Shown: positions 2,871-27,310 of the stretch, piece after piece
Position numbering within the stretch: position 1 is the stretch's first letter
How the letters are laid out: each line of letters begins with the position of its first letter
Assembly (NCBI GenBank): GCA_016176525.1
Contig: JACOWZ010000003.1
Span: 128,001 to 192,000 of the forward strand
DNA length: 64,000 nt
DNA from: Candidatus Colwellbacteria bacterium
GTDB lineage: Bacteria > Patescibacteriota > Minisyncoccia > UBA6257 > Colwellbacteraceae
Reading direction: 5' to 3'
Notes under the pieces: model-generated
What the model was told of the DNA's origin: nothing
What the model saw: only the letters and a program-made list of their open reading frames with translations
Database searches by the model: none
Program-made: the position numbers and the translations under genes

Positions 2871-4283
2871 TCAAACCCCCCCCTCCGGCGAAAGTTTTCT
2901 GGTGCCAGATTTTTTCTCCATCCAGTTGACCGGCGCAGATATATAAAATGTAGTGCCTTTGTTTTCGACAGACTCAAACCAAATTCTGCCGGTGGTTTGG
3001 TCAAGAACTGATTTTATTATATACAAACCCAAGCCAGTTCCGCCAGAGTCAATAACACGTGCATTGTCCGCTCTAAAAAGTTTTTGAAATATTTTATTTT
3101 TTTGAGCCTCTGGAATGCCTATGCCCGTGTCCGATACCTTTATTAAAAGTTCTTTTTTGCCGCTCAAAGAAATATCAATATTAACTTTACCGCCTTCTGG
3201 AGTGTATTTAACGGCGTTAGATAATAGGTTTTGTAAGATTATGAGCACTAAATCTTTGTCTGCGGTAATCTTAGGAATCTTTGCACCATAATTTTCTATA
3301 AGCTCAATATTTTTCTTCTTCGCATCTATTCTTATTCCACTGCAAACACCTTTTGCAAAATCTTTAATATCTAATTGTTCCGGCTCCACAGTAAAAGAAC
3401 CTACTTCCAACCGCGACACATTTAGAAGTGCGTTTACAAGCTCAATCATGCGCCTGTTGCCTTCATTTACTTCTTCTAGATATTTCTTCTGGCTGATTGT
3501 TATTTTGCCAACGTCGCCGGAGAGAAGCATTTCTGTATACCAGCTTATTGCCGTAAGCGGGGTCCTTAATTGATGCGATGCTATAGCTATAAAATCTGCC
3601 TTTACTTTCTCAAGCTGAAGTTCTTCTGTAATATCTCTAAATACCAAGACAGCTCCTATTATTTTGCCGCTTAGAAATATCGGCGATACGGCCATATATA
3701 CGGGAAACTTATCTCCATTTCTCTTTTTTAAATATAAAGTGGTTTTTACCGAAACTGGGCCAGAAGAAACCATTTTTTTTAAACTAAAGGCCTTGCTGAT
3801 TAGCCTCTCTTTTTTGGGTAATTCTTTACCGTCTGCATTATATATATTTGTTATAGATAGCCAATTTTTGCCAATCATCTCATTATGCATAAAACCCAAC
3901 AATGTTTCAGCTGTCTCATTTACTTCAATCACATTATTATTTTCATCTATTGCAACAACGCCTTCTCCTATACTCGCCAAGATTGATTTTATTCTGGTGT
4001 TAATTGTTTCCAGCTCAACTTTCGTGATGTCTAGATCTTCTAAAATATTTAAAGCTGCAACTTTCGTATCTTCTAAATCTTTGTTTGCGCTAATCAGAGC
4101 TTGATTTCTTTCGTAGACTGCCTGTCTCGCCTCTTTAATTTCTGCCATAGACTTTTCAAAAGTTCTTGCTTCAGCGCCCAACCTCTCTAGCTTTTCTTTT
4201 AGCTTATTTCTACTTCTCCAAAAAAAGGATAAAATCCCCGCAAAAGCGGCTAAATTAAGCAATACAAATAGCAAAATTTGCAT
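2871..4283 (-). CDS. Sensor histidine kinase: N-terminal TM helix, coiled coil, PAS, HisKA, HATPase_c
   Basis: H-box ASHQLRTPL; G1/G2 boxes DTGIGIP and GTGLGL. Confidence 0.85.
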   Translation of the reverse strand: MQILLFVLLNLAAFAGILSFFWRSRNKLKEKLERLGAEARTFEKSMAEIKEARQAVYERNQALISANKDLEDTKVAALNILEDLDITKVELETINTRIKSILASIGEGVVAIDENNNVIEVNETAETLLGFMHNEMIGKNWLSITNIYNADGKELPKKERLISKAFSLKKMVSSGPVSVKTTLYLKKRNGDKFPVYMAVSPIFLSGKIIGAVLVFRDITEELQLEKVKADFIAIASHQLRTPLTAISWYTEMLLSGDVGKITISQKKYLEEVNEGNRRMIELVNALLNVSRLEVGSFTVEPEQLDIKDFAKGVCSGIRIDAKKKNIELIENYGAKIPKITADKDLVLIILQNLLSNAVKYTPEGGKVNIDISLSGKKELLIKVSDTGIGIPEAQKNKIFQKLFRADNARVIDSGGTGLGLYIIKSVLDQTTGRIWFESVENKGTTFYISAPVNWMEKKSGTRKLSPEGGV

Positions 4284-4289
4284 ATTCCT

Positions 4290-4661
4290 CTATTTTGCTT
4301 TTAAAAGCTGTGTTTTTACCTTTTCTATAACTTCTTTCAGCGGGTGGTTAGACTTTACAAAATAGTCCGCTGCACCAAGAGCCATTGATTTTTTAATATC
4401 TTCGTCGGTATCTAAGTTTGAAAGTATTATAACCGGCACCGATTTTAACTCTTCATCGTCTTTTATTTCTTTTAACACTTCGTACCCTCCTTTTTTGGGG
4501 AGTAAAAGATCTAAGAGCACGATATCCGGCTTAAATTCTTTGGCAGCTTTAAACGCAGAGCCTCCTTCGTAGACAACTTTTGTCTGATAACCTTCGTGCT
4601 TAAACTTATCGTCTAAGGCATCGGCTAAAGCCGCCTCATCTTCAACTATAAATATCTTCAT
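4290..4661 (-). CDS. Single-domain response regulator
   Basis: Receiver-domain motifs. C-terminal DYFVKSNHPLKEV is shared with the receiver of 4683-6746. Confidence 0.8.
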   Translation of the reverse strand: MKIFIVEDEAALADALDDKFKHEGYQTKVVYEGGSAFKAAKEFKPDIVLLDLLLPKKGGYEVLKEIKDDEELKSVPVIILSNLDTDEDIKKSMALGAADYFVKSNHPLKEVIEKVKTQLLKAK

Positions 4662-4682: not shown

Positions 4683-6746
4683 CTAAACGTCTGTCTGCCG
4701 CCGTATTTTTTTGATAATATCTTTAGTAATTTGGTCTCTAGCTTTAGTTCGCTCTTCTGTGATTTTTTGCGCTGCCTTTTTACGCTCTGCTTTAAATATC
4801 TTTTCTTTCTCGGCTCTAAGTTTCGCTTGATCGCGCACTTCATCTTCAGCAAGTATTGCCCGCGTTTTTGTGCGTTCTACACGAAGAGCCGCAGACGCCT
4901 TTGCGCGTTCTTTTGCAACCGCAGATGCAACACGGATTTTCGCCGCATGCACTGCCTCATGCGCCCTCTCGCGTACACTCCTTAAAAGTTTTTCTGTTTT
5001 TCGTGCGCGTGCGAGTGCAGCCTTTGCTCTTTCTTTCTCTGCTTTAATTTCGCCTTCGGCCTTGCTCTTTACAGCTTTTAGGCGCGCTTCTTCTAACTTC
5101 TTGTGAGCAGCTATACGCTTTGCTTTTTGATTCTTTAGGCGGGTTAATTCCAGTTTAACTTTTGCGAGCTCTTTTAAGATATCTCTTTCTTTCTTTTTCT
5201 CTTCCATTAAAGCGAATTTGGTTGCTTTATTTACTCCGCTTAGTTTGATTTTTTTCTTTAGCGCAGCAATTTTTGTCTTGGCTCTCTCTTTTTGGCTTGC
5301 AATCAACTTTGACTCTTTCTCTAGCGTTTTAATCGCCTCCCTCGCGCGCTCGCGCGCATCTCTAATCGCGGCTTTTGCTTTATGCCTTGCCTCTGCAATA
5401 CTTTTTTGCTTTTCTTTGGTTTTTTCCGCGAGAAGTTTTTTAACCCTTTCATGCTCTTTTGCAAGCGCAAGTTCCGCCTCTTCTTTCTCTTTCTCTGCCT
5501 GCTCGGCAGCTTTTTTAGCTTCAATAAGCGAAGAGTCGCGCAGGTCGCGCTCAACATGCGTAGATTCGGCAAGTTTTTCTTCTGCAGAAAGCGCTGCCGC
5601 TTCCGCTTTTCTCTTCTCTTCAAATATTGCCTCTTCTGCATCTTTCTTTAGTTTTGCAAGCGTCTCTTCTGCGCGCCTTCTTTCGTCTGCGAGCGCGGTT
5701 TCTGCGCGTTCGCGTTCAATTGCAAGCTTTTCTTCAGCTACCTTTTTCTCAACAAGCGCCGCCTCTGCCATTTGCTTTGCACGCTCTGCCTCCTCTGCTT
5801 TCTTTTTAGCCTCCACTAGGGCCTTGCGAGCTTTTTCTATCTCTGCAGCCGCGGCTTTGGATTTTTTCTTCTCGCGTAAAAGCGCTTCTTGAAGTTTAAC
5901 CTTTTCCCCAAGCACTTCTTCGGTCGAAGTTGCCTTTACCGCTTTCTCCTCTGCGCGCTTTTTCTCAATGGCAATAGAAGCAGTAGTTCTTTTTCTCTCT
6001 TCAACAAGCGCCGCTTCAGCCCGTCTGCGCTCTTCTTTAAGGGCTTCTTCTGCGCGCTTATGCTCTTTTTCAAGCGCTTCTTCTTTGCGCTTAGCTTCTT
6101 CTTCTATTTTTTTGTGTTCTACTTCTCTCTCTGCTTCTGCTCTCTCGCGCTCTTTTGCTGAAGCCTCGGCCGCCCTTGCCCTCTCGGCTTCATGTGCTGC
6201 TTCTCTCTTTCTTCTCTCTTCTGCAAGCGCCTTTGCTGCATGCTTTCGCTCTGCATCAAGTGCTTCGCGAGCTTGGGCCTTTTCTTTTTCGTGCGCAGCT
6301 TCTTCCTCTTTATGGCGTTTTACCTCTAGCGCAGTTTTCGCATCTTCAATATCGGCAGTAGTTGGCAGCTGCACCCCGGCGCGCTCCATTATTTCACTAG
6401 CTTTCTCTACAACTTCTTTCAACGGATGGCTAGCTTTAACAAAATAATCCACAGCGCCCAACCGCAAGGCGCGTTTAATATCTTCATCGTTGCCGAGGTT
6501 TGAGAGCATTATTACATCGGCTTTCTTAAGCTCGTTGTCTCTTTTTAGTTCTTGTAAAACTTCAAAACCGTCTTTTATCGGCAACAGAATATCCAGCAAT
6601 ATAACATCTGGCAAAAAACGCCTTGCAATATCTACAGCCTCGCCGCCATTTTGCGCAATTTCAGCCTCAAAACCACTTGTTATAAATTTATCGCGTAAAG
6701 CTTCGGCGAGCGCAACCTCATCTTCTACAATAAGAACTTTCGCCAT
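4683..6746 (-). CDS. Response-regulator receiver domain fused to a ~550-aa highly charged E/K/R/A-rich helical (coiled-coil or single alpha-helix) region
   Basis: N-terminal 125 aa is a CheY-like receiver (VEDE...LLDILLP). The rest is low-complexity AEEKR repeats. Long + strand S/A/F-rich ORFs are mirror-image artifacts. Confidence 0.75.
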   Translation of the reverse strand: MAKVLIVEDEVALAEALRDKFITSGFEAEIAQNGGEAVDIARRFLPDVILLDILLPIKDGFEVLQELKRDNELKKADVIMLSNLGNDEDIKRALRLGAVDYFVKASHPLKEVVEKASEIMERAGVQLPTTADIEDAKTALEVKRHKEEEAAHEKEKAQAREALDAERKHAAKALAEERRKREAAHEAERARAAEASAKERERAEAEREVEHKKIEEEAKRKEEALEKEHKRAEEALKEERRRAEAALVEERKRTTASIAIEKKRAEEKAVKATSTEEVLGEKVKLQEALLREKKKSKAAAAEIEKARKALVEAKKKAEEAERAKQMAEAALVEKKVAEEKLAIERERAETALADERRRAEETLAKLKKDAEEAIFEEKRKAEAAALSAEEKLAESTHVERDLRDSSLIEAKKAAEQAEKEKEEAELALAKEHERVKKLLAEKTKEKQKSIAEARHKAKAAIRDARERAREAIKTLEKESKLIASQKERAKTKIAALKKKIKLSGVNKATKFALMEEKKKERDILKELAKVKLELTRLKNQKAKRIAAHKKLEEARLKAVKSKAEGEIKAEKERAKAALARARKTEKLLRSVRERAHEAVHAAKIRVASAVAKERAKASAALRVERTKTRAILAEDEVRDQAKLRAEKEKIFKAERKKAAQKITEERTKARDQITKDIIKKIRRQTDV

Positions 6747-6767
6747 ATTTAGATTTTAATTTTACTT

Positions 6768-8504
6768 TTACTTTTCAATTTCACCAATTTGTTCGCCTAT
6801 ATATTTGGCAGAATTTGCCGTGTTTTCTTTAAGGCGCAAAAGCATGGTTTTAATTTCGCGTGCTTCGCGCTCGTCAATCTTTTGGTCGGCATATTTTACC
6901 ATAATAGCGTCAATTTCTTTTTCAACATTCTTAAAGGCATTTACCACATCGCGGCGGGTAATAAACAAATCTCTTGATCTTTTTTCAGAGAGCTTTTTTT
7001 CAAACCAAAAGCCGCCTGCAAATGCCCCAGCAAGGAAAATTATAGCAAGAACAAAAAACCAAGTTTTTGAAATGTCTATGCCAAAGAGAGATAAGAGAGG
7101 CTTGTCTTTAACAGTTATCTTACTTGTTTCTGCAGGCAAGCTCTGCGCACCGCGGGAATCAACTGTGGTTGCAAGTATCACATAATTGCCGCGCCTAATT
7201 GAGGCCTCGCTAAATTCGCCGCTCCAATTTCCGAGCGGGTCAACAGCTACATCTTTTTGCGCCGCTACATCTCCGCGTTCCGAGCGCAGGACAAGGCGCA
7301 CTTTCTCTTCGGCAAGCGCAGTGCCAGCAATGCTAATATTCTGCTCATCTAAAATTACTCTCTCACTAAAAAACGTAATAACAGGAGACTCAATCGGCAA
7401 AATTTCTATATCCAAACTTGCTTCTGTTCTATTGCCTGCGTTATCAACCGCGGCAACAACTATCGTGTGCGCCCCGGGCGGAAGAGGTTTAATTTTATAA
7501 GTTGTTTCGTTGGTGTATTCCACTTCGCCGCCTATCGCACGGATTGCATAGTGTTCTAATCCCGACAAATCGTCGCCAGATTGATAAGTGAGTGTTGGCG
7601 ATGGGTTGTCTGTTACACCATCGACATCTGAACTAATATTGAATTCTACAGGTGGTGCCGTATCTATTGCTATTCTATAGTGTGTTGTGGGGCCCCAGCC
7701 AATATTATTGCGAAAGCGCACATGGAGATACCAAATGCCGTCATCAAGCGGCACAAATTCGCGCGCTTCAAAAAGGCCTTCGGAGGTTACAGGGCTTGAT
7801 GTAGGTATTTTGTTTATCAGCGTATCTACATTTGTTACATCATCTGGTAAGCTCCAAATTGCGGAAAACTTTGATTTTATATTAAACCAGCCCTCGGGGT
7901 CGGGATAAAGCGGCACCTGAACTTCCGGTTTAACAGGCAGATTGCCTGTTGGCACAGCGGGGCGCTCAATTTGCACAGGCGGAGCAACCGGAGAGGGTGT
8001 TACGCCCGGCACAACTTGTGAACCGGCTAAAATATTAACTGTTACACCCTGAAATTCGCGGAGCACATTGGTGCCACTGCCATCCGAGGCAGTTACGGCA
8101 CCATCTAGAAAGGTAATATTGCCTTCTCCGCCGCCCTTAACCCTAAATGTAATATTTAAAACCTGAAGTGACTGGCCGGATTTGCCAGAAGTTGCCCCGC
8201 CAACGAAAGTGACTCTGCCTTCAGTGTTATCAAATGCAGGCTCCTCTAACCAAAAATTAAAAATAGAATCGGTTTTACTCAGACTTGTTACCTCTAAAAT
8301 ACTCGTAGGAAAACTTATTGCAGCTTCGGCAGCGTTCACGCCAATCCCTTCTGAATTTATCTGGACATCAACTGTTATTGTATCCCCAATAGCTGCTGTT
8401 TCTTTGTCAGATGAAAGCTTTAAAATAGCCGCGCTTGCAGTATTTACTCCAAAAAACACTGTAAACGTTGCCGCTACCAAAACTAGTCTTAAAAATTTAT
8501 TCAT
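6768..8504 (-). CDS. Cell-surface protein: signal peptide, cohesin-like domain, Ig/FN-like beta domains, C-terminal TM anchor and charged cytoplasmic tail
   Basis: N-terminal MNKFLRLVLVAATFTVFFGVNTASA. Cohesin-like segment (ITVDVQIN...ISFPTSILEV...ITFRVKG). TM helix WFFVLAIIFLAGAFAGGFWF near the C-terminus. Confidence 0.6.
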   Translation of the reverse strand: MNKFLRLVLVAATFTVFFGVNTASAAILKLSSDKETAAIGDTITVDVQINSEGIGVNAAEAAISFPTSILEVTSLSKTDSIFNFWLEEPAFDNTEGRVTFVGGATSGKSGQSLQVLNITFRVKGGGEGNITFLDGAVTASDGSGTNVLREFQGVTVNILAGSQVVPGVTPSPVAPPVQIERPAVPTGNLPVKPEVQVPLYPDPEGWFNIKSKFSAIWSLPDDVTNVDTLINKIPTSSPVTSEGLFEAREFVPLDDGIWYLHVRFRNNIGWGPTTHYRIAIDTAPPVEFNISSDVDGVTDNPSPTLTYQSGDDLSGLEHYAIRAIGGEVEYTNETTYKIKPLPPGAHTIVVAAVDNAGNRTEASLDIEILPIESPVITFFSERVILDEQNISIAGTALAEEKVRLVLRSERGDVAAQKDVAVDPLGNWSGEFSEASIRRGNYVILATTVDSRGAQSLPAETSKITVKDKPLLSLFGIDISKTWFFVLAIIFLAGAFAGGFWFEKKLSEKRSRDLFITRRDVVNAFKNVEKEIDAIMVKYADQKIDEREAREIKTMLLRLKENTANSAKYIGEQIGEIEK

Positions 8505-8523
8505 AATTCTAATATTAAGTATA

Positions 8524-11370
8524 TCATCTTCTTAATCCTCGTATAAATATGGAAAAGTCCGAAATGTCGGTTTTGCCGTCTTGGTTGAGATCTAGCGTAC
8601 CGCGCAAAGAGGTGTCGGTTGATGCCCAACGGAACAAAAATATGCTCCAATCGCTGATATTGGCTTTGCCGTCGCCGTTTAAGTCGGTTGCCGGCACTAG
8701 TAAAGTGGAGATAATAAAACTCTTAACAATGGATTTAGGCGATCTGGGTCCGAGATTTCTGTCTTGTTGCCAAACGCTTATAGCGTGGGTGCCAACGCCC
8801 AGATCTGCAGTATTCACCAGCAGTTTATACGAGCCAGTATCCGGATATTCCGGATCTACACCACCCTCCACGCCGTCAATTTCGTATTTAATGCTTGAAG
8901 TTACAAATTTAGAGCCGCTAACCGCCAAGAAATCTCCCTTGCGCACAGTAGCCCGCGAGAGCAATATTGTTGGAGGTAAAAATATGTTTTCTACCGATGT
9001 TAAACCTCTTTGAATGTTTACTTCATAAAAAGTGGACTGTGCAGATGCCCCAAACTTGTCTGTGGCCCTAATTGCGTAATAAAAAACATCCGGCTGGGTG
9101 CTCGTAAATTCAATATAGAAAAAGCCCGAAGTTTGCACCGGAATATTGCTATCAACTTCGTAAGTCGGAGCAAAAGTACTTCCGCCGCGAGCAAGCAACG
9201 ATAGCGAGGCGTCTGGATATGCTTTGCCATGAAAATAAAGTCTGCCGATAGGAGTCGCCCCGCCTGGCGGAGGTGGTGGCGGAGGCGGAGGCGGTGGTGG
9301 CGGAGGTGGCGGTCCTGGAGGCGGAGGTGGAGGTGGCGGAGAGGTATTAGTAGTTCCGCTCGGCACATTTGAAATAGCGGAAACATTCGGCACTTCATCT
9401 GAAGTTTTAAGCGCAAAAAAGTATGTAGTGCTCTCGGAAAGCCCTGTAACAGTCATAGACTCGGAACTGCCAGCTACAGATGGCGTAGGCTCGCCGCTTA
9501 CAGCAGTTGCGGAAGAAAAATTGCCGTCAGTTATGGTAGAGGTTGAATACCTTATATCATAACTTGTGGCAGTCCCCGTACTTCCATCGTCCCCCGGCGC
9601 AGTCCAGTCGAGATCAAGTGTAGATGACGACGGGTTTGAAGCCGCTAGATCGCTTACTGCCGCAGGCGCGGTTGTGTCGGCAGATGCGGAAGTGGTGCCA
9701 CTTGGAATATTGGAAATAGCAGAAGTATTTGGCACTTCGTCAGATGTTTTGAGCGCAAAGAAGTATGTGGTACTCGCAGAGAGCCCCGTCACTGTTTTTG
9801 ATTCTGACGAACCAGCGACAGAAGGAGTAGGTTCTCCAGAAACTTGTGTAGCAGAAGAAAAATTGCCGTCGGTTATAGTTGAAGTAGAATAACGCAAATC
9901 ATAAGTAGTGGCAGTTCCCGTGTTTCCGTCGTCCCCTGGAGCCGTCCATGTAACTACAATAGACGAAGACGTAACCGAGCCGGTGGCTAAATCACTTACT
10001 GCTGCCGGCGCGGTAGTGTCCCCCGCTGCAGCAGGTGTAAATGGGCTTCCAGTCGGTACAACGCCGGTAGCGGAATAGTTCACATCATCGTCGCGGGTGT
10101 AGATGCGGTAATGGTACGCGGTGCCGTTTGTAAGGCCTGTATCCGTGCACGATGTAGACGATGTCACGCAGGCAACAGTTGAGGAACCGATGGTATTGCC
10201 GACTACATATGTTGTCCCCTCGGTTGGAGTATCGGAGGTGGCGGCGCCGGCTCTGCGCAAGATAATCGTGCTTGTATAGTCGGAATCGGCCGGGTTAGTC
10301 CAAGAAAGAGAAACCTGCGCGTCACCTGCCGTGCCAGTTGCGCCCGTGACATTTGCCGGCGACTCGTTGTCGATTGTGACTGTGGCGGAGTTGGTGTCGG
10401 TTCCTGCTTGTGTGTTGGTGCTTGTGAAAGCGGTAATTGTGCCGGTCACAGAATAAGTTGAGCCAGAAGGCGCGGGCATGTCGGCGTGTGATTTTGGAGT
10501 GATACGAATTTTGAATGAGGTGAGAGTTGTTGTGACAGGAATCCCGCAGCTTGTAAGCGAGACGGTGCTTGAGGCTGGGTCGACCTGCGAACAATACGTA
10601 GTAGAACCAGCGTTATTTGTTATCTCAACAAGCGAGAGACCGCCGGAAACGCCTGATGCTAAGGTTGCAGTCGCCGCTGTAACTGTGTCTGTGCCGGTTG
10701 AAGTTTGGAGAGTAAATGTATCAAGTTCGGTGGCAGAAGCGCCTGGGGCGATAGAGGAATTTGAGGGATTCGTGCCGTTGCCGATGGTCGTTGTCGCCGC
10801 GGGAGGAGTATATGTAACTGTTATCCATAAGTAATCAAAATGAATGGCGTCGGCTGCTCCGCCGTCGTTCGAGGTAAACTCAATATCAATATTTTGTATT
10901 TCGCTCAAGGTATCAACACCAGCCGAGAAAAGATTGTAGCTCTGCTCCGCGCTAAAACCAGTGATGTCGGTTGGAGTAATTGTTGTGTTTGTTAGCCCTC
11001 CGCCGTTGTCATAACGCACAGAATTTGTGCCGTTATACCCATCTTCAGCGCCGAACTGCAAACGGAGAGACACAGCAGTAATAGTAGAGCCAACTGGAAT
11101 CGACGAAACATCAAAAGTTATAAACTGCATAACAGCGCCTTTATCTACAGTGTAAACCCCATCGCTTGCAACAACCGCAGAAAGTGTGTCTGGGTCTACA
11201 GATGAATTATCGGTTGTAATTTCACTAAGCGCTTCGCCTGTGTTGTCGTTGGCATGCTTTGCATTAGGCACAGCGTTTAGCGTGTCTGCCAAAACCAGAG
11301 ATGTGCCATCAAAAAACCCAAACAAAACAACAATAGCAATAATAAATATAAAAAACTTAATTAACTTCAC
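8524..11370 (-). CDS. Large secreted protein: signal peptide, beta-rich domains, two tandem FN3-like repeats, poly-proline linker, C-terminal type-I dockerin
   Basis: Dockerin Ca-binding repeats DLNGDGKANISD and DLNQDGKTDISD. PPPPPPPPGPPPPP... tract. Two 114-aa near-identical repeats. Confidence 0.7.
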   Translation of the reverse strand: MKLIKFFIFIIAIVVLFGFFDGTSLVLADTLNAVPNAKHANDNTGEALSEITTDNSSVDPDTLSAVVASDGVYTVDKGAVMQFITFDVSSIPVGSTITAVSLRLQFGAEDGYNGTNSVRYDNGGGLTNTTITPTDITGFSAEQSYNLFSAGVDTLSEIQNIDIEFTSNDGGAADAIHFDYLWITVTYTPPAATTTIGNGTNPSNSSIAPGASATELDTFTLQTSTGTDTVTAATATLASGVSGGLSLVEITNNAGSTTYCSQVDPASSTVSLTSCGIPVTTTLTSFKIRITPKSHADMPAPSGSTYSVTGTITAFTSTNTQAGTDTNSATVTIDNESPANVTGATGTAGDAQVSLSWTNPADSDYTSTIILRRAGAATSDTPTEGTTYVVGNTIGSSTVACVTSSTSCTDTGLTNGTAYHYRIYTRDDDVNYSATGVVPTGSPFTPAAAGDTTAPAAVSDLATGSVTSSSIVVTWTAPGDDGNTGTATTYDLRYSTSTITDGNFSSATQVSGEPTPSVAGSSESKTVTGLSASTTYFFALKTSDEVPNTSAISNIPSGTTSASADTTAPAAVSDLAASNPSSSTLDLDWTAPGDDGSTGTATSYDIRYSTSTITDGNFSSATAVSGEPTPSVAGSSESMTVTGLSESTTYFFALKTSDEVPNVSAISNVPSGTTNTSPPPPPPPPGPPPPPPPPPPPPPPPPGGATPIGRLYFHGKAYPDASLSLLARGGSTFAPTYEVDSNIPVQTSGFFYIEFTSTQPDVFYYAIRATDKFGASAQSTFYEVNIQRGLTSVENIFLPPTILLSRATVRKGDFLAVSGSKFVTSSIKYEIDGVEGGVDPEYPDTGSYKLLVNTADLGVGTHAISVWQQDRNLGPRSPKSIVKSFIISTLLVPATDLNGDGKANISDWSIFLFRWASTDTSLRGTLDLNQDGKTDISDFSIFIRGLRR
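9266..9340. repeat. (GGN)n tract encoding the poly-Pro linker on the minus strand
   Basis: ggcggaggtggtggcggaggcggagg... seen in sequence. Confidence 0.8.
9345..10030. repeat. Tandem direct repeat, ~342 bp x 2 (FN3-like modules of the dockerin protein)
   Basis: cacttcatctgaagtttt at 9391 and cacttcgtcagatgtttt at 9733. Long near-identical blocks by eye. Confidence 0.7.
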
Positions 11371-15191: not shown

Positions 15192-15263
15192 GCCCCTGTC
15201 GTTCAACGGATAGGATAACTGGCTTCGAACCAGTGGATGGGAGTTCGATTCTCTCCGGGGGCA
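15192..15263 (+). tRNA. tRNA-Arg (anticodon UCG), no encoded CCA
   Basis: Hand fold: acceptor GCCCCTG/CGGGGGC, anticodon loop CTTCGAA, T-loop TTCGATT. Sister tRNA at 54612 has near-identical arms with anticodon CCT. Confidence 0.7.
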
Positions 15264-15266
15264 CAC
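15246..15266 (+). repeat. Direct repeat copy 1 (3' end of tRNA-Arg): CGATTCTCTCCGGGGGCACAC
   Basis: Identical 21-mer recurs at 15413-15433. Confidence 0.85.
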
Positions 15267-15545: not shown

Positions 15546-16151
15546 ATGGCTCTCGTGCAGATGGATTTTACTAATGAGGAGCTTGTGCCTCTCATTATTA
15601 AAAAACTCCAGCGCGAGAAGAAGCAACAGTTCGCAACCCGTAAAAGCAGACGAAGCGGCGCGCAACTCGTAGACATCCGGGATATTCTGGTGTCGGCAGA
15701 AACTCTCGCCGAAGGCCTGAAAAACGCCGGCTACGAGCTAACAGACGCGCACTACGAACCCCGGCAAGACCAGCGCAACCAAAACCGAACCTACCACATG
15801 GTGCGGTTCTGGTTTACGAGGAGTGAGCATGCAAAACCCTCCACAGACTTTCTGTCTGTGCGAGAGGGTGTGCTCTCCGAACTTGAGCGAATGCTTACAA
15901 CCAACTTCTGGAAGCAGTTGCGGGTATACCGCAACCCCTTCTACAGTCCGGAAACGGGCGAAGAAGTTGAAGAAGCGCGCACAATGTCGGTGAACCTCGG
16001 CGTGCCGGAACGGATCTTCGATGAAAAGAACGTCCGCCGCGAAGTATGGGTTCGGGACCAAAACGGGCTAAAAACCCACAAAACCGCGATCTCCCACGAT
16101 CTTAGCATCTACGCGGACAAAACCGCGATACATGCTGTAGGTCCGAGCTAG
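15546..16151 (+). CDS. Hypothetical protein (201 aa), GC-rich foreign-looking codon usage
   Basis: Long ORF with own promoter and terminator. No recognizable motif. Confidence 0.5.
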   Translation: MALVQMDFTNEELVPLIIKKLQREKKQQFATRKSRRSGAQLVDIRDILVSAETLAEGLKNAGYELTDAHYEPRQDQRNQNRTYHMVRFWFTRSEHAKPSTDFLSVREGVLSELERMLTTNFWKQLRVYRNPFYSPETGEEVEEARTMSVNLGVPERIFDEKNVRREVWVRDQNGLKTHKTAISHDLSIYADKTAIHAVGPS

Positions 16152-16170
16152 CGGTATCTCTCCCCAACTA

Positions 16171-16208
16171 GGGGCACAAAGGCAATCGCCAATGTGCCCC
16201 ATTTTTTT
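16171..16208 (+). terminator. Intrinsic terminator GGGGCACA..TGTGCCCC then ATTTTTTTATCC
   Basis: 8-bp GC stem plus T7. Confidence 0.65.
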
Positions 16209-16224
16209 ATCCACATATGGTGAC

Positions 16225-16253
16225 TTGACATAGAACAAGCTTTATGCTAACAT
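16225..16253 (+). promoter_or_regulatory. Promoter: TTGACA, 17-nt spacer, TAACAT
   Basis: Seen in sequence; conserved module. Confidence 0.5.
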
Positions 16254-16348
16254 TAGAAGCAGAGTTGGAAGAGGGTCTTCCAACTAACAGTACCTAGACA
16301 AAAGAAAAAGAGACCGGTAAAGCCGGAAAAATGAAGGAGAGAAGGGAA

Positions 16349-17089
16349 ATGCAAAAACTGCAAAACGGAATAACCGTAAAGAACGACGACCAGCGAACGA
16401 AGGAAGCTCTGGAGCGGGCGGAAGCAAAGAAGGCGAGCGTGATGCCGTGCATCACGGTACGCCTTGCGAAGAGTTCCGCAAGGCTTCTCGATGAGCTCAA
16501 GGAGAAGGGCATCAAACTGATCCCCGACCTTGAAAGCGACGGGCATGTGCTCGCTGCGTTCAAGGATGGAGAGAAAGTTCCCCTCGTCCTGGAGAGCGCG
16601 GTTGCAACCGGAGGAGCTCGCCCCACGATCCTTGAGTTCATGGGGCCGAAAGAACTCCGAAGCACCTACACTCGCTTCGCCGTGTCGCAGAGGGACTTCA
16701 GGGAGAAGACCTTTGCTCCGACCAAGCGCACGCGCTACAACAACTCCGCTGGTGAAGACGAGGTGCGGTGCATGTCGGAAGGACATGGCAAGGTTCAGGC
16801 GCCAGCGAAAACCGAGCTTGTCGTGTCCGAGGTCAACACCGATGGAGGGTGTATCATCACGGAGTACACCTTCACCGTCTCCACGAAGGACGGCGCGGTC
16901 AGCATCACGGCTCGCAAACTCGCCCAGTTCCAGATGGTTCCCCGAGAACTTCTGGGTCTGAAGCCTGCCATGGACCACGCATACGACGAAGCAACGCGTG
17001 ACGTGGAATTCTGGCAAGAGCGAGACAGGCAGAACAGGATCGGCCGGAACGGGAGCAACCACTTCCGCAACGGCCACCAGCACCGCTAA
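16349..17089 (+). CDS. Hypothetical protein (~246 aa), strongly GC3-biased (foreign) codon usage; start moved to the Met preceded by AAGGAGA
   Basis: Third-codon positions mostly G/C in contrast to native genes such as recA. The antisense 302-aa ORF 16253-17161 is a GC artifact. Confidence 0.55.
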   Translation: MQKLQNGITVKNDDQRTKEALERAEAKKASVMPCITVRLAKSSARLLDELKEKGIKLIPDLESDGHVLAAFKDGEKVPLVLESAVATGGARPTILEFMGPKELRSTYTRFAVSQRDFREKTFAPTKRTRYNNSAGEDEVRCMSEGHGKVQAPAKTELVVSEVNTDGGCIITEYTFTVSTKDGAVSITARKLAQFQMVPRELLGLKPAMDHAYDEATRDVEFWQERDRQNRIGRNGSNHFRNGHQHR

Positions 17090-17120
17090 GACCTTCGAAC
17101 TCTCTACCCACTCTTTTCCC

Positions 17121-17155
17121 GCCCAAACAGATTCGTCTGTTTGGGCACTTTTTTT
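17121..17155 (+). terminator. Intrinsic terminator GCCCAAACAG..CTGTTTGGGC then ACTTTTTTTATCC
   Basis: 10-bp stem plus T7. Confidence 0.7.
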
Positions 17156-17173
17156 ATCCAAATATTATATATA

Positions 17174-17202
17174 TTGACAATATAATATATTTATGCTAAA
17201 AA
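17174..17202 (+). promoter_or_regulatory. Promoter: TTGACA, 17-nt spacer, TAAAAA
   Basis: Same architecture as 16225. Confidence 0.5.
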
Positions 17203-17239
17203 ATAAGCAGTACTCCAAAAGATAGGGAGTCTGTTGTAG

Positions 17240-17881
17240 ATGAATGGAATGGAACTCGTGAGAACACTGCCGGTTTTAAAGCCGGTTGGAGTGCAGTTCC
17301 AAAAAGACACACTTGGGCAAGAAGAACTGCACCAAAACCTAAGGCATCTAGAAGATGCCGGTGTACCAGATACCGCCGTTAAAGTTGCCGAAACCAAAAA
17401 AGGCAGAGCTATAAGAGTTACGCTCTTAAACGGCATAGATGCACATGGATTGCAGAAAGACAATTCGTGGAAGCTGGGCGTAATCTTAGAGCTAGTGAGA
17501 AGCAAAGACCCGGACGAAAATTACGGAATCGGCCTTGCAGCCGTATACAGGATTCCGTTTGAGTATATCCAGGCACTTTGTTTACACCACAACGGAACCC
17601 GCAAATGGATAGCGCAGCTTAAGCGCAGCAACGCTTATGTTGTGCGAGCAAAAAAAGACGGCACATTAAACTTCTTCCACATTGATGCAAACTTTCCAGA
17701 TGGAAAGGTAAACGCTTTTTTGGAAGAAGACGAAGAACGCAGCCGAACTGATTATGCAGAAAGGCCACAACTCTTTACTGCTTTCGGCTTCGCTTTTCAG
17801 AACATGCAAACGAGACTGCCGGAACAATGGCAGCAATTTAGCCGCAACGGGCAGGCAAAAAGCTCTAGTGAAATTCACTAG
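17240..17881 (+). CDS. Hypothetical protein (213 aa), native-like codon usage
   Basis: ORF with promoter. No motif recognized. Confidence 0.5.
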   Translation: MNGMELVRTLPVLKPVGVQFQKDTLGQEELHQNLRHLEDAGVPDTAVKVAETKKGRAIRVTLLNGIDAHGLQKDNSWKLGVILELVRSKDPDENYGIGLAAVYRIPFEYIQALCLHHNGTRKWIAQLKRSNAYVVRAKKDGTLNFFHIDANFPDGKVNAFLEEDEERSRTDYAERPQLFTAFGFAFQNMQTRLPEQWQQFSRNGQAKSSSEIH

Positions 17882-17927
17882 AGCAATTTTTGTTTTGTAT
17901 TTGATGAAATATTCTAAATAGATAACG

Positions 17928-18527
17928 TTATAGACTAGATTGTTTATCTGCGATTCTCTTTTTAAGATCCGCTATTCTCAACTCCCTGGTGATCATATTT
18001 TTATTGAACTCCTTCAACTTGCTATTTTTCATAGAAATTTCCTTATAAACAGTCTCTAAAGATAAGGTTTCTGTGACTAATTCTTTTTCTATTTTCTTAA
18101 CGCCATCAACTTGCCTAGAAAGCTCTTTGTTTATTTCTCTGAGTTTTGTAGGACTAATTAGTTTTAACATAGAAGGAACGGCAACCGCATATGCGACAAA
18201 TGATGCAAAAGATATAAGACCCGTGCCGAGATCAATCGTACCGGCGAGATAATACGCCGGATAAAAAAATACTAAGGCGTTAATAAAATGGCTGGTGCTG
18301 CACCAAACCCCAAAGACGGTAATAACCAAAAAGACCCATCTAAAAGAGAAATCCTTCCTTTTGATATAGATATAAAAAAGCTCGGCTGGAATAACAAGAT
18401 AAGTGATGCCGATTAAAATATTGGCAATTATAAGCGTCCACATCAGCCCGATATTATTTGGAATAAAATGCGCACTGTGAGGCTCGAACCCGCCGGAGTT
18501 TAATATTAGATTAATAAAATCAAGCAT
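17928..18527 (-). CDS. Ethylene-binding-domain (ETR1 N-terminal)-like membrane sensor with C-terminal coiled coil; no kinase domain
   Basis: IPAELFYIYIKRK...FRWVFLVITVFGVWCSTSHFINAL aligns with ETR1 IPLELIYFVKK...[23 protein letters not shown]. C-x3-H copper ligands conserved. Confidence 0.65.
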   Translation of the reverse strand: MLDFINLILNSGGFEPHSAHFIPNNIGLMWTLIIANILIGITYLVIPAELFYIYIKRKDFSFRWVFLVITVFGVWCSTSHFINALVFFYPAYYLAGTIDLGTGLISFASFVAYAVAVPSMLKLISPTKLREINKELSRQVDGVKKIEKELVTETLSLETVYKEISMKNSKLKEFNKNMITRELRIADLKKRIADKQSSL

Positions 18528-19116
18528 GTTTGTTGTCTATATCAACCAATTGGGCTTCTAATTCTTTGACGGCGCTATCGCGATTCGCCATGATTCTATT
18601 AAAATTTTCCAATTCCTCGTTTTTCAATATCAAATTCTCGCTGGCTTTTTTGAGCTCTTCTTTCTTTACCGCAAGTTCTCCTAATTTAGACTCTCGACTT
18701 TTAATTTCATCAGAGAGAGATTTGTTGGCTTGCTGCATTTGTTCCGGGCTTACCAAACTAACAATGATAGGCAAGAAGTAAAGCATAGCTACCGCGGTCG
18801 CGGCCGAAACCAAAAAAGTTACGACGCTGATTATCGCCTGCAGATAATATGCCGGATACCAGAAGATAAGAACATGCATTAAATGGGTAAGGCCGCATAA
18901 GAAGATAAAAGCCCCGAAAAGCAAAACCATCCAGTTCAGATACAAATCCCTTCTTTTTCTAACGAAATATATGATTACAACCGGGATTAAGAGATAAGCC
19001 AAGAAACTGAAGGCATTCCCATACACCGACAGATCCATTGCAATCGGAGTATCAAAAAAGTGTGCTCTATGAGGTTCAAAAACAGAACCATCAAAAATTA
19101 ATTTAAGAAAGTCCAT
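18520..19116 (-). CDS. Ethylene-binding-domain-like membrane sensor, paralog 2. Start moved to the Met matching the paralog's N-terminus; the track's start at 19173 is GTG.
   Basis: IPVVIIYFVRKRR...NWMVLLFGAFIFLCGLTHLMHVL; Cys/His spacing as in ETR1. Extended -10 TGgTATAAT upstream. Confidence 0.65.
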   Translation of the reverse strand: MDFLKLIFDGSVFEPHRAHFFDTPIAMDLSVYGNAFSFLAYLLIPVVIIYFVRKRRDLYLNWMVLLFGAFIFLCGLTHLMHVLIFWYPAYYLQAIISVVTFLVSAATAVAMLYFLPIIVSLVSPEQMQQANKSLSDEIKSRESKLGELAVKKEELKKASENLILKNEELENFNRIMANRDSAVKELEAQLVDIDNKHA

Positions 19117-19278
19117 AGTAGAATACACAAAAAAATTATACCACGCGCTATTTAATAACAATCTAAAAAACACAACAGAAATCCGGTTTTGAATAATTTC
19201 CTATTCACCCCGACGCTACGTCGGGGCAAGCGGGAAACTCCCGTTTCCCGATCCCTTCCCAGTTCGATTCCCTATAAA

Positions 19279-19312: not shown

Positions 19313-19318
19313 TTTCAG

Positions 19319-19390
19319 TAGTCCCAAGGGGAATCGAACCCCTATTTGCGCCGTGAAAGGGCGCTGTCCTAGCCGTTAGACGATGAGACC
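19319..19390 (-). tRNA. tRNA-Glu (anticodon UUC)
   Basis: Hand fold: anticodon stem GCGCC/GGCGC, loop CTTTCAC, T-loop TTCGATT. Confidence 0.65.
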
Positions 19391-25218: not shown

Positions 25219-25815
25219 TTAATCGGCAATACTAAACTCAATACTCGGATTGAGGGTTTTAATCTTTTCTACCGGAATTACATAAGCGGACTCAGGCTGG
25301 GTGATTAAAACAGACAATCCATCCATCTTTTCTCCCAGATTCATAAGCTTAGAAAGAAAATCAGTAATTCTTTTTTCTTCGTTATACAGCAAAAAAGCCA
25401 TTACAGAGTCAACAAACAAAAACTTTTTCTCGGATTTTATATTATTTATAGCTTCGGTGGCGCATTTATAGATATCATCCAGAGAAAACGGCCCTTCAAC
25501 AAAATCAACCCCATTTATATTGGTAACACCCTTTTCTGCAACTCCGTATGACACGGAAATTGCGTCAATTACCATAATATTGTCCGCCCAATGGATGCCG
25601 CGATCTTTTATCTGTTGCATAAACTCCGTGGCGCTTTTGAACGCGCTTAATAAAACACCTTTATAGCCCATAGAGATAAGTTCGGAGAGAACCCTGGAGG
25701 TTATTTCAAAATCGTCTCGGAGCGCGGCCTTTATAGTAATGATTCTTGGATTTTGAACCAAGGCTTTTTGAAGCTCAGACTCTATTTCCTTCTTTTTAAT
25801 TGCCTTCTGTAACAT
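25219..25815 (-). CDS. Hypothetical protein with degenerate RecA/KaiC-like fold lacking a P-loop; downstream partner of the KaiC-like ATPase
   Basis: hhhhDS segment (FLFVDSVMAFLL) and overall pattern resemble a KaiC domain. No GxxGxGKT. Confidence 0.4.
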   Translation of the reverse strand: MLQKAIKKKEIESELQKALVQNPRIITIKAALRDDFEITSRVLSELISMGYKGVLLSAFKSATEFMQQIKDRGIHWADNIMVIDAISVSYGVAEKGVTNINGVDFVEGPFSLDDIYKCATEAINNIKSEKKFLFVDSVMAFLLYNEEKRITDFLSKLMNLGEKMDGLSVLITQPESAYVIPVEKIKTLNPSIEFSIAD

Positions 25816-25834
25816 TAATACTCTTATTTGCCGC

Positions 25835-27310
25835 TTATTTATTTAACGGCCCTGTAATACTGATTCCTTTTTTATTGATTTCATATTCTATAATTTCTTT
25901 TTCATGCCATGAGCCGCGAAGTTTTAAAATATTAAGAACGTTTATAATCTTTTTTTCGCGCTCTATATAGCGGGCTAGAATTACGCCGTCAACGAGCGAG
26001 CTTAGGCGAAGCGCTGTTGCGGATGTGGGCCCGAAGGTCTGTGGCGGAACAGATACGAATAAACTTGGCTCTAAGTGATTCACATACGCCGTGATGCCCT
26101 CGCTCTTTAAAAAGAAGTTTAGCTGGACTAAAAATTCGCGAACAAGTTCAAGAGGAATTTTACGCGATTCAATTGAAGATATTGAGTCAATTAAAATCCG
26201 TTTTGTATCCGGCTTATTTTTGGCTGCATTCACTATTTTATAGAGCAGCTTATCAAGATTGGTGTCTAGAAGACTCTCGCTAACAAATGCAAGTTGGCCG
26301 GATTTCTTAAATTTCTCGAGATCAAAGCCATATTCAGCCGCTGTTTTAACAATCTGTTCTGGCGGCTCTTCCATCGTCAGATAAATAACATCTTCTCCTT
26401 TTAGCAAGCCGTCCATAAGAAAATGCAGGCCAAAGGTTGTCTTGCCGGTGCCGGTGTTTCCGCTTATTAGCATTAAGTGCCCATAAGGAACTCCGCCACC
26501 CAGCATCTTGTCTAAAGCGGGCAGGCCGCTTGAGAGCCTTTCTGTAATATCAGTTTTAAAAGTGGAGCTGTAAGATGGAATTTTGGGGTAAATAATAACT
26601 CCATCGCCTGTGATATCAAAAATAACCTGACCGCTTCTGTAAGATACGCCGCGCATCTTTTCTACGTTCAACCTGCGGATCATAGACTGTTCCCCAAGAG
26701 TGTAGTTCAGCACAATAATTCCATCCGCCACAGAGTCTTCTACTCCGAATACCGACAAGCCCTGGTTATTTCTTTCAGCTATTAATAAGAGAGTCGCATT
26801 TCTAATTGACATAGCCCTTATAAGCCTTGAGAGAAATACCCTTGCCGTGGCCACATCTGTAAGCCTATATAAAAATCCTGTAATGTTGTCAAAAACCACT
26901 CGTTTTGAGCCAAGTTTATCAACTAAATTGGTAATAGCTTGAACAACTGCATTTATATCTTTTGAATCCAACTTTTTTTCCTCAAGATTCCGGCCTTTTA
27001 CCAAAATTTCTAAGTCAGAAAAATAAACTCCTGCTTCATCCACCGCGCTCTGGCTATAAAACCCAAGGGTTCTAGTATTTTTTATAGCCGAAGCAATAGG
27101 CTCCGTTGTGCTTATGTATACTCCCGGCTCTTTAAACTTTGTATAACCGGTAAATAGCCACTGCAAGCCAATAACAGTTTTTCCCGTACCGGGCTGACCA
27201 GAAAGTATAACAGAAGAACCTTCCACCAACCCGCCATTTAAAACCGAATCCAGGCCGGGAATTCCCATGGGCTGAATTTGCAATTTTTCCTCTACAAGCG
27301 GTTTTTTCAT
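25835..27310 (-). CDS. KaiC-like double RecA-domain ATPase
   Basis: Two Walker A motifs (SGQPGTGKT, SGNTGTGKT), each preceded by G.P.LD..L.GG. Confidence 0.8.
   Translation of the reverse strand: MKKPLVEEKLQIQPMGIPGLDSVLNGGLVEGSSVILSGQPGTGKTVIGLQWLFTGYTKFKEPGVYISTTEPIASAIKNTRTLGFYSQSAVDEAGVYFSDLEILVKGRNLEEKKLDSKDINAVVQAITNLVDKLGSKRVVFDNITGFLYRLTDVATARVFLSRLIRAMSIRNATLLLIAERNNQGLSVFGVEDSVADGIIVLNYTLGEQSMIRRLNVEKMRGVSYRSGQVIFDITGDGVIIYPKIPSYSSTFKTDITERLSSGLPALDKMLGGGVPYGHLMLISGNTGTGKTTFGLHFLMDGLLKGEDVIYLTMEEPPEQIVKTAAEYGFDLEKFKKSGQLAFVSESLLDTNLDKLLYKIVNAAKNKPDTKRILIDSISSIESRKIPLELVREFLVQLNFFLKSEGITAYVNHLEPSLFVSVPPQTFGPTSATALRLSSLVDGVILARYIEREKKIINVLNILKLRGSWHEKEIIEYEINKKGISITGPLNK

Follow-up and report, generated by a model that had tools for sequence, protein, structure and literature searches.

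Two tandem genes of Candidatus Colwellbacteria, here called A and B, encode small membrane proteins that, judged by profile match and alignment, are bona fide members of the ETR1-type ethylene-binding domain (EBD) family and that are not histidine kinases. They lie in a 64-kb stretch of DNA, hereafter the window, by which we mean the whole stretch that was analysed. An earlier note, made from the letters of the DNA, had presented the pair as EBD proteins whose tails carry no output; we find instead that the tail ends in a portable, strictly C-terminal module of kinase-less sensors, which we term motif-1 and which is coupled genomically to histidine kinases bearing a cognate motif, motif-2. With moderate confidence we favour the reading that A and B are trans-acting copper-type membrane sensors that would dock via motif-1 onto a motif-2 kinase.

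Both members of the tandem open reading frame (ORF) pair described in the earlier note were found, on the minus strand, and its guess of a genome like those of the candidate phyla radiation (CPR) was right, because the two proteins are exact matches of NCBI hypothetical proteins from a Candidatus Colwellbacteria metagenome-assembled genome (contig of 644,793 bp), a lineage placed within Parcubacteria/Patescibacteria (CPR). Read from the sequence, the ATG of B overlaps the stop codon of A by 8 nucleotides (nt), and A and B are paralogues, as had been proposed (32% identity over 193 amino acids (aa), E 1e-38).

An Asn25 subfamily of ethylene-binding domains

The Pfam profile PF25487 (ETR1_N, 'Ethylene receptor 1-like, N-terminal domain'; gathering score 27 bits) matched both proteins above its gathering score (Table 1), in agreement with the EBD assignment made earlier, and it also matched their orthologues at locus L001 (93.8 and 80.2 bits). 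We aligned A and B with residues 1-184 of an ETR1 sequence whose numbering is consistent with the classical mutant positions D25, A31, Y32, I62, C65, H69, K91 and A102. Invariant in this alignment are Y32, I35, F61, C65, H69 and S98, and the predicted Cys-x3-His pair falls, in helix II, on the Cu(I) ligands C65/H69, with C74/H78 in A and C76/H80 in B. Because the profile matches and the Cys/His pair aligns, we place A and B in the EBD family. The remaining equivalents are N34 (D25), Y41, I44, P45, I71 (I62) and S97 (K91) in A, and N36 (D25), Y43, I46, P47, G73 (I62), S77 (G66) and D99 (K91) in B. Of the ETR1 residues that had been singled out for checking, Y32, C65 and H69 are thus kept in both proteins, but D25 is Asn in both; likewise, the conserved block FG..C...H is present, but B lacks 'LCG' (FGVWCSTSH) and A has NWMVL rather than the RW block.

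Pfam and NCBIfam scans revealed no kinase, GGDEF or MCP domain on either chain, as the earlier note had it, and no HisKA/DHp or HATPase match; the NCBIfam scan returned no meaningful family, and a PDB sequence search returned chance coiled-coil matches only and no solved EBD. An AlphaFold2 model of A, built on a 9-sequence alignment (pLDDT 87 overall), has the expected three transmembrane helices, at residues 24-54, 61-83 and 90-120, with B aligning over the same span. The tail, described before as a coiled coil of ~90 aa, is shorter in both proteins (about 75-78 aa beyond the EBD) and in the model of A forms a single uninterrupted helix of 74 residues (124-197, pLDDT about 90). The topology would be N-out/C-in, in keeping with the basic VRKRRD loop behind the first helix.

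A profile built from the short family, run exhaustively with HMMER, yielded 11,030 representative proteins at E <= 1e-3 (4,281 at E <= 1e-30), and the best 150 of these matches, together with earlier ones, gave an alignment of 168 EBDs. The equivalent of Cys65 is present in all 168 and that of His69 in 167, and D25 and K91 occur together in 139. Where position 25 is Asn, position 91 is D, S, E or L in 22 of 24 EBDs and Lys in only two. The external N-terminal segment reads [F].PH..C in 132 of 140 D25 proteins and FEPH..H in 20 of 22 N25 proteins. By sequence, A and B belong to a distinct EBD subfamily with FEPH..HF for PHG.C, Asn at Asp25 and no Lys91, and the FEPH..HF segment, taken in the earlier note for an extra element, corresponds, in this subfamily, to the N-terminal PHG.C(Y/F).W common to most bacterial EBD proteins. 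A link of Asn25 with loss of Lys91 and the N-terminal Cys-to-His change is not reported in the accessible parts of PMC10266040 and PMC11971883, and we found no description of the three-way covariation in the literature searched. The I62G and G66S changes of B (FGVWCSTSH) recur in the orthologues L001B, P0048 and P0050. As a separate observation, His takes the place of Thr68 (C-G-x-H-H) in P0004, P0044, P0045, P0049, P0054, P0111 and the L002 kinase; this second His beside the Cu ligand is common in Asn25-clade EBDs, and P0044 (C-G-L-H-Y) is without His69 itself.

As to the ligand, Wang et al. are said to have found in 2006 that ethylene binding by ETR1 depends on Y32, I35, P36 and I62, among other residues. 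The accessible text of PMC10266040 and PMC11819568 names D25, C65 and H69 as required. A retains six of these seven residues (D25 is N34) and B five (D25 is N36 and I62 is G73). Among 1,221 EBDs, Asp25 occurs in 93.55% and Asn in 3.67%, the D25N form of ETR1 keeps copper binding and function at a lowered ethylene affinity, and Asp25 is proposed to bridge to Lys91 and so transmit the signal, all according to the available part of PMC10266040; that of PMC11971883 puts the affinity loss at about 100-fold. The bridge is absent in A (N34/S97) and B (N36/D99), because both have Asn at Asp25 and no Lys91. Copper binding by A and B is plausible, and their ligand would be ethylene or another small unsaturated or gaseous molecule, probably bound with an affinity below that of ETR1, as expected from Asn25 and the missing Lys91. 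Since Gly stands at I62 in B in addition, high-affinity ethylene binding cannot be assumed, and the two proteins, lacking D25 and K91 and with binding only predicted, fall outside the class of proven high-affinity ethylene receptors.

The A+B tandem occurs in two other CPR lineages, three in all, with the same gene order and 40-50% identity. In Colwellbacteria RIFCSPLOWO2_01_FULL_48_10 (L001), identified by a genome-collection scan with a 4-sequence alignment, the A-type gene occupies 5995-6600 and the B-type gene 6604-7221, and in L176/L177 a 205-aa A-type gene overlaps a 200-aa B-type gene by 8 nt. According to the accessible part of PMC10266040, receptors with an EBD function as dimers, and because of this, the gene overlap and the fixed order of A then B, the two proteins probably form a heterodimer. 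In L002, a Kaiserbacteria genome, a FEPH..HF/Asn25 EBD is fused to HisKA and HATPase, from which it follows that the EBD serves as a kinase input in the Asn25 subfamily; P0118 is likewise kinase-fused. Kinase-less EBD proteins ending in motif-1 number about 29, of which roughly half have the canonical D25/K91 and evidently come from other phyla, so that the layout is not confined to CPR. The suggestion of the earlier note that the module might be undescribed stood: in the literature searched, with subscription reviews partly uncovered, we found no description of EBD proteins in CPR, of such a layout or of the motif-1/motif-2 pair, and no survey of EBD proteins without output, an earlier mention of 'EBD-only' proteins being possible in those reviews.

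A C-terminal helix module and its genomic coupling to kinases

The motif-1 consensus is ..ERT.EL..KI.ELE.(F/M)NK.(M/A)VGRELKM(I/V)ELKKEI.., with the core NK.MVGRELKM.ELKKEI, and short EBD homologues (170-260 aa) consist of the EBD and a helix ending in ..(F/M)N..(M/A)(V/I)(G/D/N)RE..(M/I).ELK.E(I/V)... When the ORFs of the window were scored with a motif-1 profile built from eight non-window sequences, B matched significantly and A, with E 0.07, was the fourth-best ORF. The GRELKM-type ending that the earlier note saw in both is therefore significant in B, but a literal GRELKM is absent from both, the sequence being NKNMITRELRIADLKKRI in B and NRIMANRDSAVKELEAQL in A. Clear motif-1 copies are present in the A-type orthologues L001A, L176A, P0002 and P0004, and the chain ends one residue (A) and zero residues (B) past the match, as measured on the exact copies P0001 and P0013. 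The two best-scoring window proteins are kinase-less PAS proteins (Table 1), the longer of which has the motif-1 stretch ..VKERTQELQEKINELETMNKLMIGRELKMIKLKEEL... Beside the shorter one, directly downstream (6768-11370, minus strand), are genes for two large proteins of the secreted type, which contain cohesin, Big_13, fibronectin-III and dockerin domains.

Outside the window, a profile of the ending (A4) matched 30 small proteins or fragments in a database of 5.8 billion proteins, many of them labelled Patescibacteria and some preceded by a HAMP domain or the end of a PAS domain. When metagenomes were scanned with the motif-1 profile, at least 455 matches were confirmed among the 600 stretches listed, from which 80 loci with 101 motif-1 ORFs were kept. 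In 64 database proteins and in these 101 ORFs, motif-1 is no more than 30 residues away from the C-terminus, and none of them is a kinase. Pfam domains in 98 motif-1 proteins, of the kinds that typically serve kinases as input, included PAS (30), HAMP (21), dCache (6), flavodoxin (6), GAF (5) and REC (2), as well as CHASE, PocR, 5TMR-LYT and HisKA_7TM; no output domain was among the families listed. At 17 of the 80 metagenome loci, two or three motif-1 genes stand in a row. No Pfam model covered motif-1 (VGRELKM core) in scans of A, B and the locus proteins, and the motif-1 and motif-2 sequence strings led to no relevant paper in the literature searched. We also considered motif-1 as a degenerate H-box or truncated pseudo-DHp, with GRELK resembling SHELR of HisKA or ARELHD of HisKA_3, and rejected this: an hhalign comparison of 84 motif-1 sequences with 39 DHp regions gave a probability of 0.1%.

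Genes for motif-1 proteins are mostly followed by kinase genes. Metagenome loci count as informative if their sequence continues for 2.5 kb or more beyond the last motif-1 gene; in 27 of the 33 such loci a same-strand kinase lies downstream, often overlapping, and in 26 the kinase carries motif-2, which has the pattern ..ELE(D/E)(S/T)(K/R).A.(L/M)N(I/V/M)LED(L/V)EE.. (LED(L/V/T).. across the first loci; short form A.LN[IV]LED.) and lies in a cytoplasmic coiled coil. Motif-2 is present on 35 of 41 kinases in motif-1 loci and on none of 101 control kinases, which came from 78 loci fetched with an EBD query and are mostly cyanobacterial; a looser, single motif-2 pattern gave 32/41 versus 0/101 (Fisher p about 5e-24). 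Two loci resolve the association within themselves. In L081, 6 nt separate an EBD-motif-1 gene (P0008) from the gene of a 468-aa kinase downstream of it, and only this kinase has motif-2, the other two kinases of the locus being without it; in L152, too, motif-2 is on the kinase adjacent to the motif-1 gene only. This within-locus specificity argues against a pure lineage effect.

Further loci have the same arrangement. A 77-aa motif-1 protein in L087 precedes a 755-aa kinase and two receivers, motif-1 genes precede kinases and receivers in L091 and L093, and in L002 a Cache-HAMP-motif-1 gene lies directly upstream of, and abuts, the EBD-fused kinase gene. The L001 kinase carries motif-2, and the A/B-type pair of that locus is about 4 kb from the kinase-receiver cluster, which is orthologous to that of the window; thyA is beside the pair in L001 and flanks the kinase-receiver cluster in the window. 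The L176 pair is directly upstream of a gene whose product resembles the L087 motif-2 kinase at its N-terminus (49% identity over 57 residues). The motifs themselves come in matching subtypes: sensors with F(N/H/Q)(K/R)L(A/T)VGRELKMIELKEE sit with kinases with SR.ALMN(I/M)LEDVEEAR, and sensors with (M/L)NK.M(V/I)GRELKMVELKKEI sit with kinases with (A/T)K..A.N(V/I)LEDL, and it is this second class that the window, L002 and L087 fit. A shared ERT.EL..KI.ELE lead-in precedes motif-1 and motif-2 in the same register and spacing. Homology of the two motifs throughout was rejected, since only the ERT.EL..ELE lead-in aligns (hhalign probability 12%).

Several loci have features of their own. Two tandem copies of motif-2 (for example ELEESRKALMNMLEDVEGSRKALMNMLEDVEEAR) are found in the kinases L099 6313-7716 and L093 2232-3935. 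Upstream of each kinase gene stand several genes for motif-1 or small accessory proteins (in L099, three for motif-1 proteins), and the two copies may provide one docking site per sensor. In L093 (1043-2241), and also in L094 and L095, the genes of two paralogues (195 and 202 aa), which lack any Pfam match and share a C-terminal C..F.GDK.HQF signature, stand between a transmembrane motif-1 gene and the kinase. A CPR kinase with an N-terminal ferredoxin-reductase-like FAD/NAD-binding domain followed by PAS and HisKA (L087 6239-8506, L176 4681-4863) has its gene immediately downstream of motif-1 genes, which in L176 are the EBD pair. On an archaeal contig (L090 5630-6291, MCM helicase nearby), the gene of a 96-aa HAMP-motif-1 protein overlaps a STAS/SpoIIAA-like gene.

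Proposed action in trans and alternatives

The output of A and B is likely a kinase in trans, because the motif-1 module is genomically coupled to histidine kinases with the cognate motif. In the mechanism that we propose, A and B would be co-translated from their overlapping genes and would have no enzymatic output of their own, each comprising a periplasm-facing FEPH..HF segment, three transmembrane helices that hold the Cu(I) site formed by Cys and His, and a single long helix in the cytoplasm. The motif-1 of the sensor would dock onto the motif-2 helix in the coiled coil of a separately encoded kinase, a physical contact that we infer from the genomic pattern, and a ligand bound by the membrane domain would alter the activity of that kinase in trans. 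The partner in the window would be the kinase 2871-4283, the sole match of a histidine kinase core hidden Markov model within the 64 kb, flanked by the receiver proteins 2484-2858, 4290-4661 and 4683-6746; the same kinase may also take input from the two PAS-motif-1 proteins of the window.

Several observations weigh against this mechanism. The pair is 14 kb from the window kinase, on the same strand and not in the same operon, and the genome, of which the window covers 64 kb, measures at least 645 kb and may encode other kinases. The motif-1 of A is degenerate (E 0.07). Because the control kinases are mostly cyanobacterial, both the association of motif-1 with motif-2 and the covariation of subtypes are partly confounded by phylogeny. 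Motif-1 genes have no nearby kinase in L090 (archaeal context) and in 6 of the 33 informative loci, and in L091 the kinase beside the motif-1 gene lacks motif-2. As to the input, D25N costs ETR1 about 100-fold in affinity and I62 is Gly in B, so that the ligand may be something other than ethylene.

Alternatively, A and B might be signalling proteins whose motif-1 recruits a partner other than the motif-2 helix, such as a receiver or an unrecognised effector, or stabilises sensor oligomers, with the kinases present through ordinary clustering of signalling genes. Receiver genes do accompany motif-1 loci, L090 pairs motif-1 with a STAS/SpoIIAA-like gene and no kinase, and the L091 kinase is without motif-2. 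We nevertheless regard this explanation as unlikely: it leaves the contrast between 35/41 and 0/101 kinases, the restriction of motif-2 to the adjacent kinase within L081 and L152, and the covariation of subtypes between neighbouring sensor and kinase genes standing against it.

It is less probable still that A and B handle or sense copper or redox state, through sequestration or delivery, rather than a gas or alkene, with a tail for oligomerisation only. The Cys/His pair is indeed kept while D25, K91 and, in B, I62 have changed, and the two extra His of the external FEPH..HF segment could bind metal. However, the FEPH..HF/N25 subfamily is a signalling input where it is fused to HisKA/HATPase (L002, P0118), the tail module is common to PAS, HAMP and Cache sensors, and no copper transport or resistance genes flank the pair among the annotated window neighbours.

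By analogy with the Ca2+ permeability of plant ETR1/ERS1, the three-helix domain might be an ion-conducting unit that needs no kinase; Ca2+ currents of ETR1, ERS1 and homologues from plants or algae are described in a preprint, but for plant-lineage receptors only, bacteria being untested according to its authors (bioRxiv 10.1101/2025.10.20.683334), and since ion conduction would leave the conserved motif-1 tail and the kinase coupling unexplained we consider it very improbable here. That A and B are decaying, non-functional remnants of EBD histidine kinases without their kinase halves, as EBD-kinase fusions in the same subfamily (L002) and the degenerate motif-1 of A might hint, is hardly credible given full-length A+B pairs in the same order in three lineages at only 40-50% identity, about 29 EBD proteins ending cleanly in motif-1, and a kept gene overlap and invariant Cys/His.

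Beyond docking of A and B on a motif-2 kinase, we suggest more tentatively that motif-1 and motif-2 could be the two halves of an undescribed, widespread plug-in system in which PAS, HAMP, Cache, GAF, flavodoxin, CHASE and EBD inputs feed one hub kinase, so that small CPR genomes would integrate several signals, including a gas or alkene signal through the Asn25/FEPH..HF EBD heterodimer. There is a real chance that A and B expose a general, undescribed way of wiring sensors to kinases. If the helices dock, many inputs would be wired to one kinase in modular fashion, which would account for the numerous PAS, HAMP and Cache proteins of metagenomes that are 'output-less' and could find use in sensor engineering. 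The subfamily, with its joint replacement of an external Cys by His, of Asp25 by Asn and of Lys91 by Asp or other residues, also offers natural variants for testing the model in which Asp25/Lys91, a pair recently proposed to do so, sets ethylene affinity and transmits the signal, and it extends EBD proteins to CPR/Patescibacteria of groundwater and sediment, far from plants.

Genomic surroundings and relation to known systems

Features of the window are collected in Table 1. An alternative, longer start of A (GTG at 19173) is unlikely, because homologues begin M-x-D-(F/L)-L and the TGGTATAAT extended -10 sits at 19143-19135; this element is a candidate promoter of an A-B operon, and a scan for sigma-70 consensus sites near the pair gave six against 4.4 expected, not above chance. 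The hairpin beyond B is a candidate bidirectional terminator. The response-regulator output of the receiver fusion near the kinase, an extremely Ala/Glu/Lys/Arg-rich and apparently helical stretch, is unusual.

Table 1 Features of the window (positions of the 64-kb stretch)
Feature	Position	Strand	Description
Gene A (NCBI HYS87_00865)	18520-19116	minus	198 aa from ATG; EBD and long helix
Gene B (NCBI HYS87_00860)	17928-18527	minus	199 aa; divergent EBD paralogue
ETR1_N region of A	18757-19032	minus	Residues 29-120; Pfam 93.3 bits, E 1.1e-26
ETR1_N region of B	18159-18446	minus	Residues 28-123; Pfam 72.7 bits, E 3e-20
Motif-1 of A, degenerate (..EELENFNRIMANRDSAVKELEAQL..)	18541-18621	minus	Inside the single long helix 124-197
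Motif-1 of B (KEISMKNSKLKEFNKNMITRELRIADLKKRIAD)	17946-18044	minus	E 1.1e-7
TGGTATAAT extended -10-like element	19135-19143	minus	Ends 18 nt upstream of the A ATG; read from sequence
Hairpin (10 bp, perfect), T-runs on either strand	17862-17884		Separates B from the convergent ORF 17240-17881
Kinase-less PAS protein, 173 aa	11401-11922	minus	Ends in canonical motif-1 (MNKFMVGRELKMVELKKKIKSLK), E 5e-17
Kinase-less protein, 364 aa	60877-61971	minus	Unknown N-terminal region, PAS, S-helix (VKERTQEL), motif-1 (MNKLMIGRELKMIKLKEEL), E 4e-17
Histidine kinase, 470 aa	2871-4283	minus	N-terminal transmembrane anchor, cytoplasmic coiled coil, PAS, HisKA, HATPase (Pfam)
Motif-2 of the window kinase (KDLEDTKVAALNILEDLD)	4029-4082	minus	Coiled coil, residues 68-85
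Stand-alone receiver (REC)	2484-2858	minus	Flanks the kinase
Stand-alone receiver (REC)	4290-4661	minus	Flanks the kinase
REC fused to about 580 aa of Ala/Glu/Lys/Arg-rich helical sequence	4683-6746	minus	By the kinase cluster

Between a tRNA-Arg gene (15192-15264) and gene B, three consecutive plus-strand ORFs of 201, 252 and 213 aa (15546-17881) have no Pfam or PHROGs match; the stretch is the most GC-rich of the window (0.49 versus about 0.42) and may be a small island inserted beside the tRNA gene. PHROGs gave no match for three other unannotated window ORFs either. One of the fourteen tRNA genes in the 64 kb, for tRNA-Glu (19318-19390, minus), shares its strand with gene A and is located about 200 nt upstream of it. 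The region 25219-27310 (minus) encodes a full-length KaiC-like ATPase with two domains (491 aa, E 6e-96) and, after it, a KaiC/DUF7090-like protein of 198 aa.

Compared with known receptors, A and B share with ETR1 of Arabidopsis, SynEtr1 (slr1212) of Synechocystis and AzoEtr1 of Azospirillum the three-helix PF25487 domain and the Cys65/His69 ligands, and keep Y32, I35, P36, F61 and S98; the predicted N-out/C-in arrangement with a helix running from the third transmembrane helix into the cytoplasm also resembles ETR1-type receptors, as far as these are described in the accessible parts of PMC10266040, PMC11819568 and PMC6682694. Unlike these receptors, A and B have no GAF, PAS, HisKA or HATPase on the chain, are encoded as a pair of paralogues, have an external FEPH..HF in place of a Cys-containing N-terminus and, in B, I62G and G66S, and their ligand binding is only predicted. 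The Asn at Asp25 is shared with the natural Asp25Asn variants found in the available text of PMC10266040 and PMC11971883. Compared with those variants, Asn25 here comes packaged with loss of Lys91 (mostly to Asp) and the N-terminal Cys-to-His change, and occurs in CPR.

Stand-alone H-NOX gas sensors are soluble haem proteins with a fold unlike that of the EBD and without an output domain that are encoded beside histidine kinases or diguanylate cyclases. Like them, as the accessible part of PMC12329717 describes them, A and B would be metal-cofactor gas sensors without output that regulate a separate enzyme, which for H-NOX is usually encoded in the same operon. Unlike them, A and B have a copper-type membrane domain and a proposed helix-to-helix contact, whereas H-NOX proteins are not known to have a dedicated C-terminal docking helix.

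The signalling helix (S-helix) with its ERT signature, reportedly described by Anantharaman, Balaji and Aravind in 2006, links input and output domains. Motif-1 and motif-2 likewise follow an ..ERT.EL.. helix and are predicted to form continuous helices; unlike the S-helix, which joins domains within one chain, motif-1 terminates the chain. Finally, split histidine kinases (PMC3591291; Hik36-Hik43, PMC7656254) also place sensor and kinase functions on separate, associating polypeptides, as far as the accessible parts of these sources go. In the split kinases described there it is the DHp/CA core that is divided, whereas the division here would run between input and kinase, with many inputs sharing one tail and a specific pair of motifs marking the two sides.

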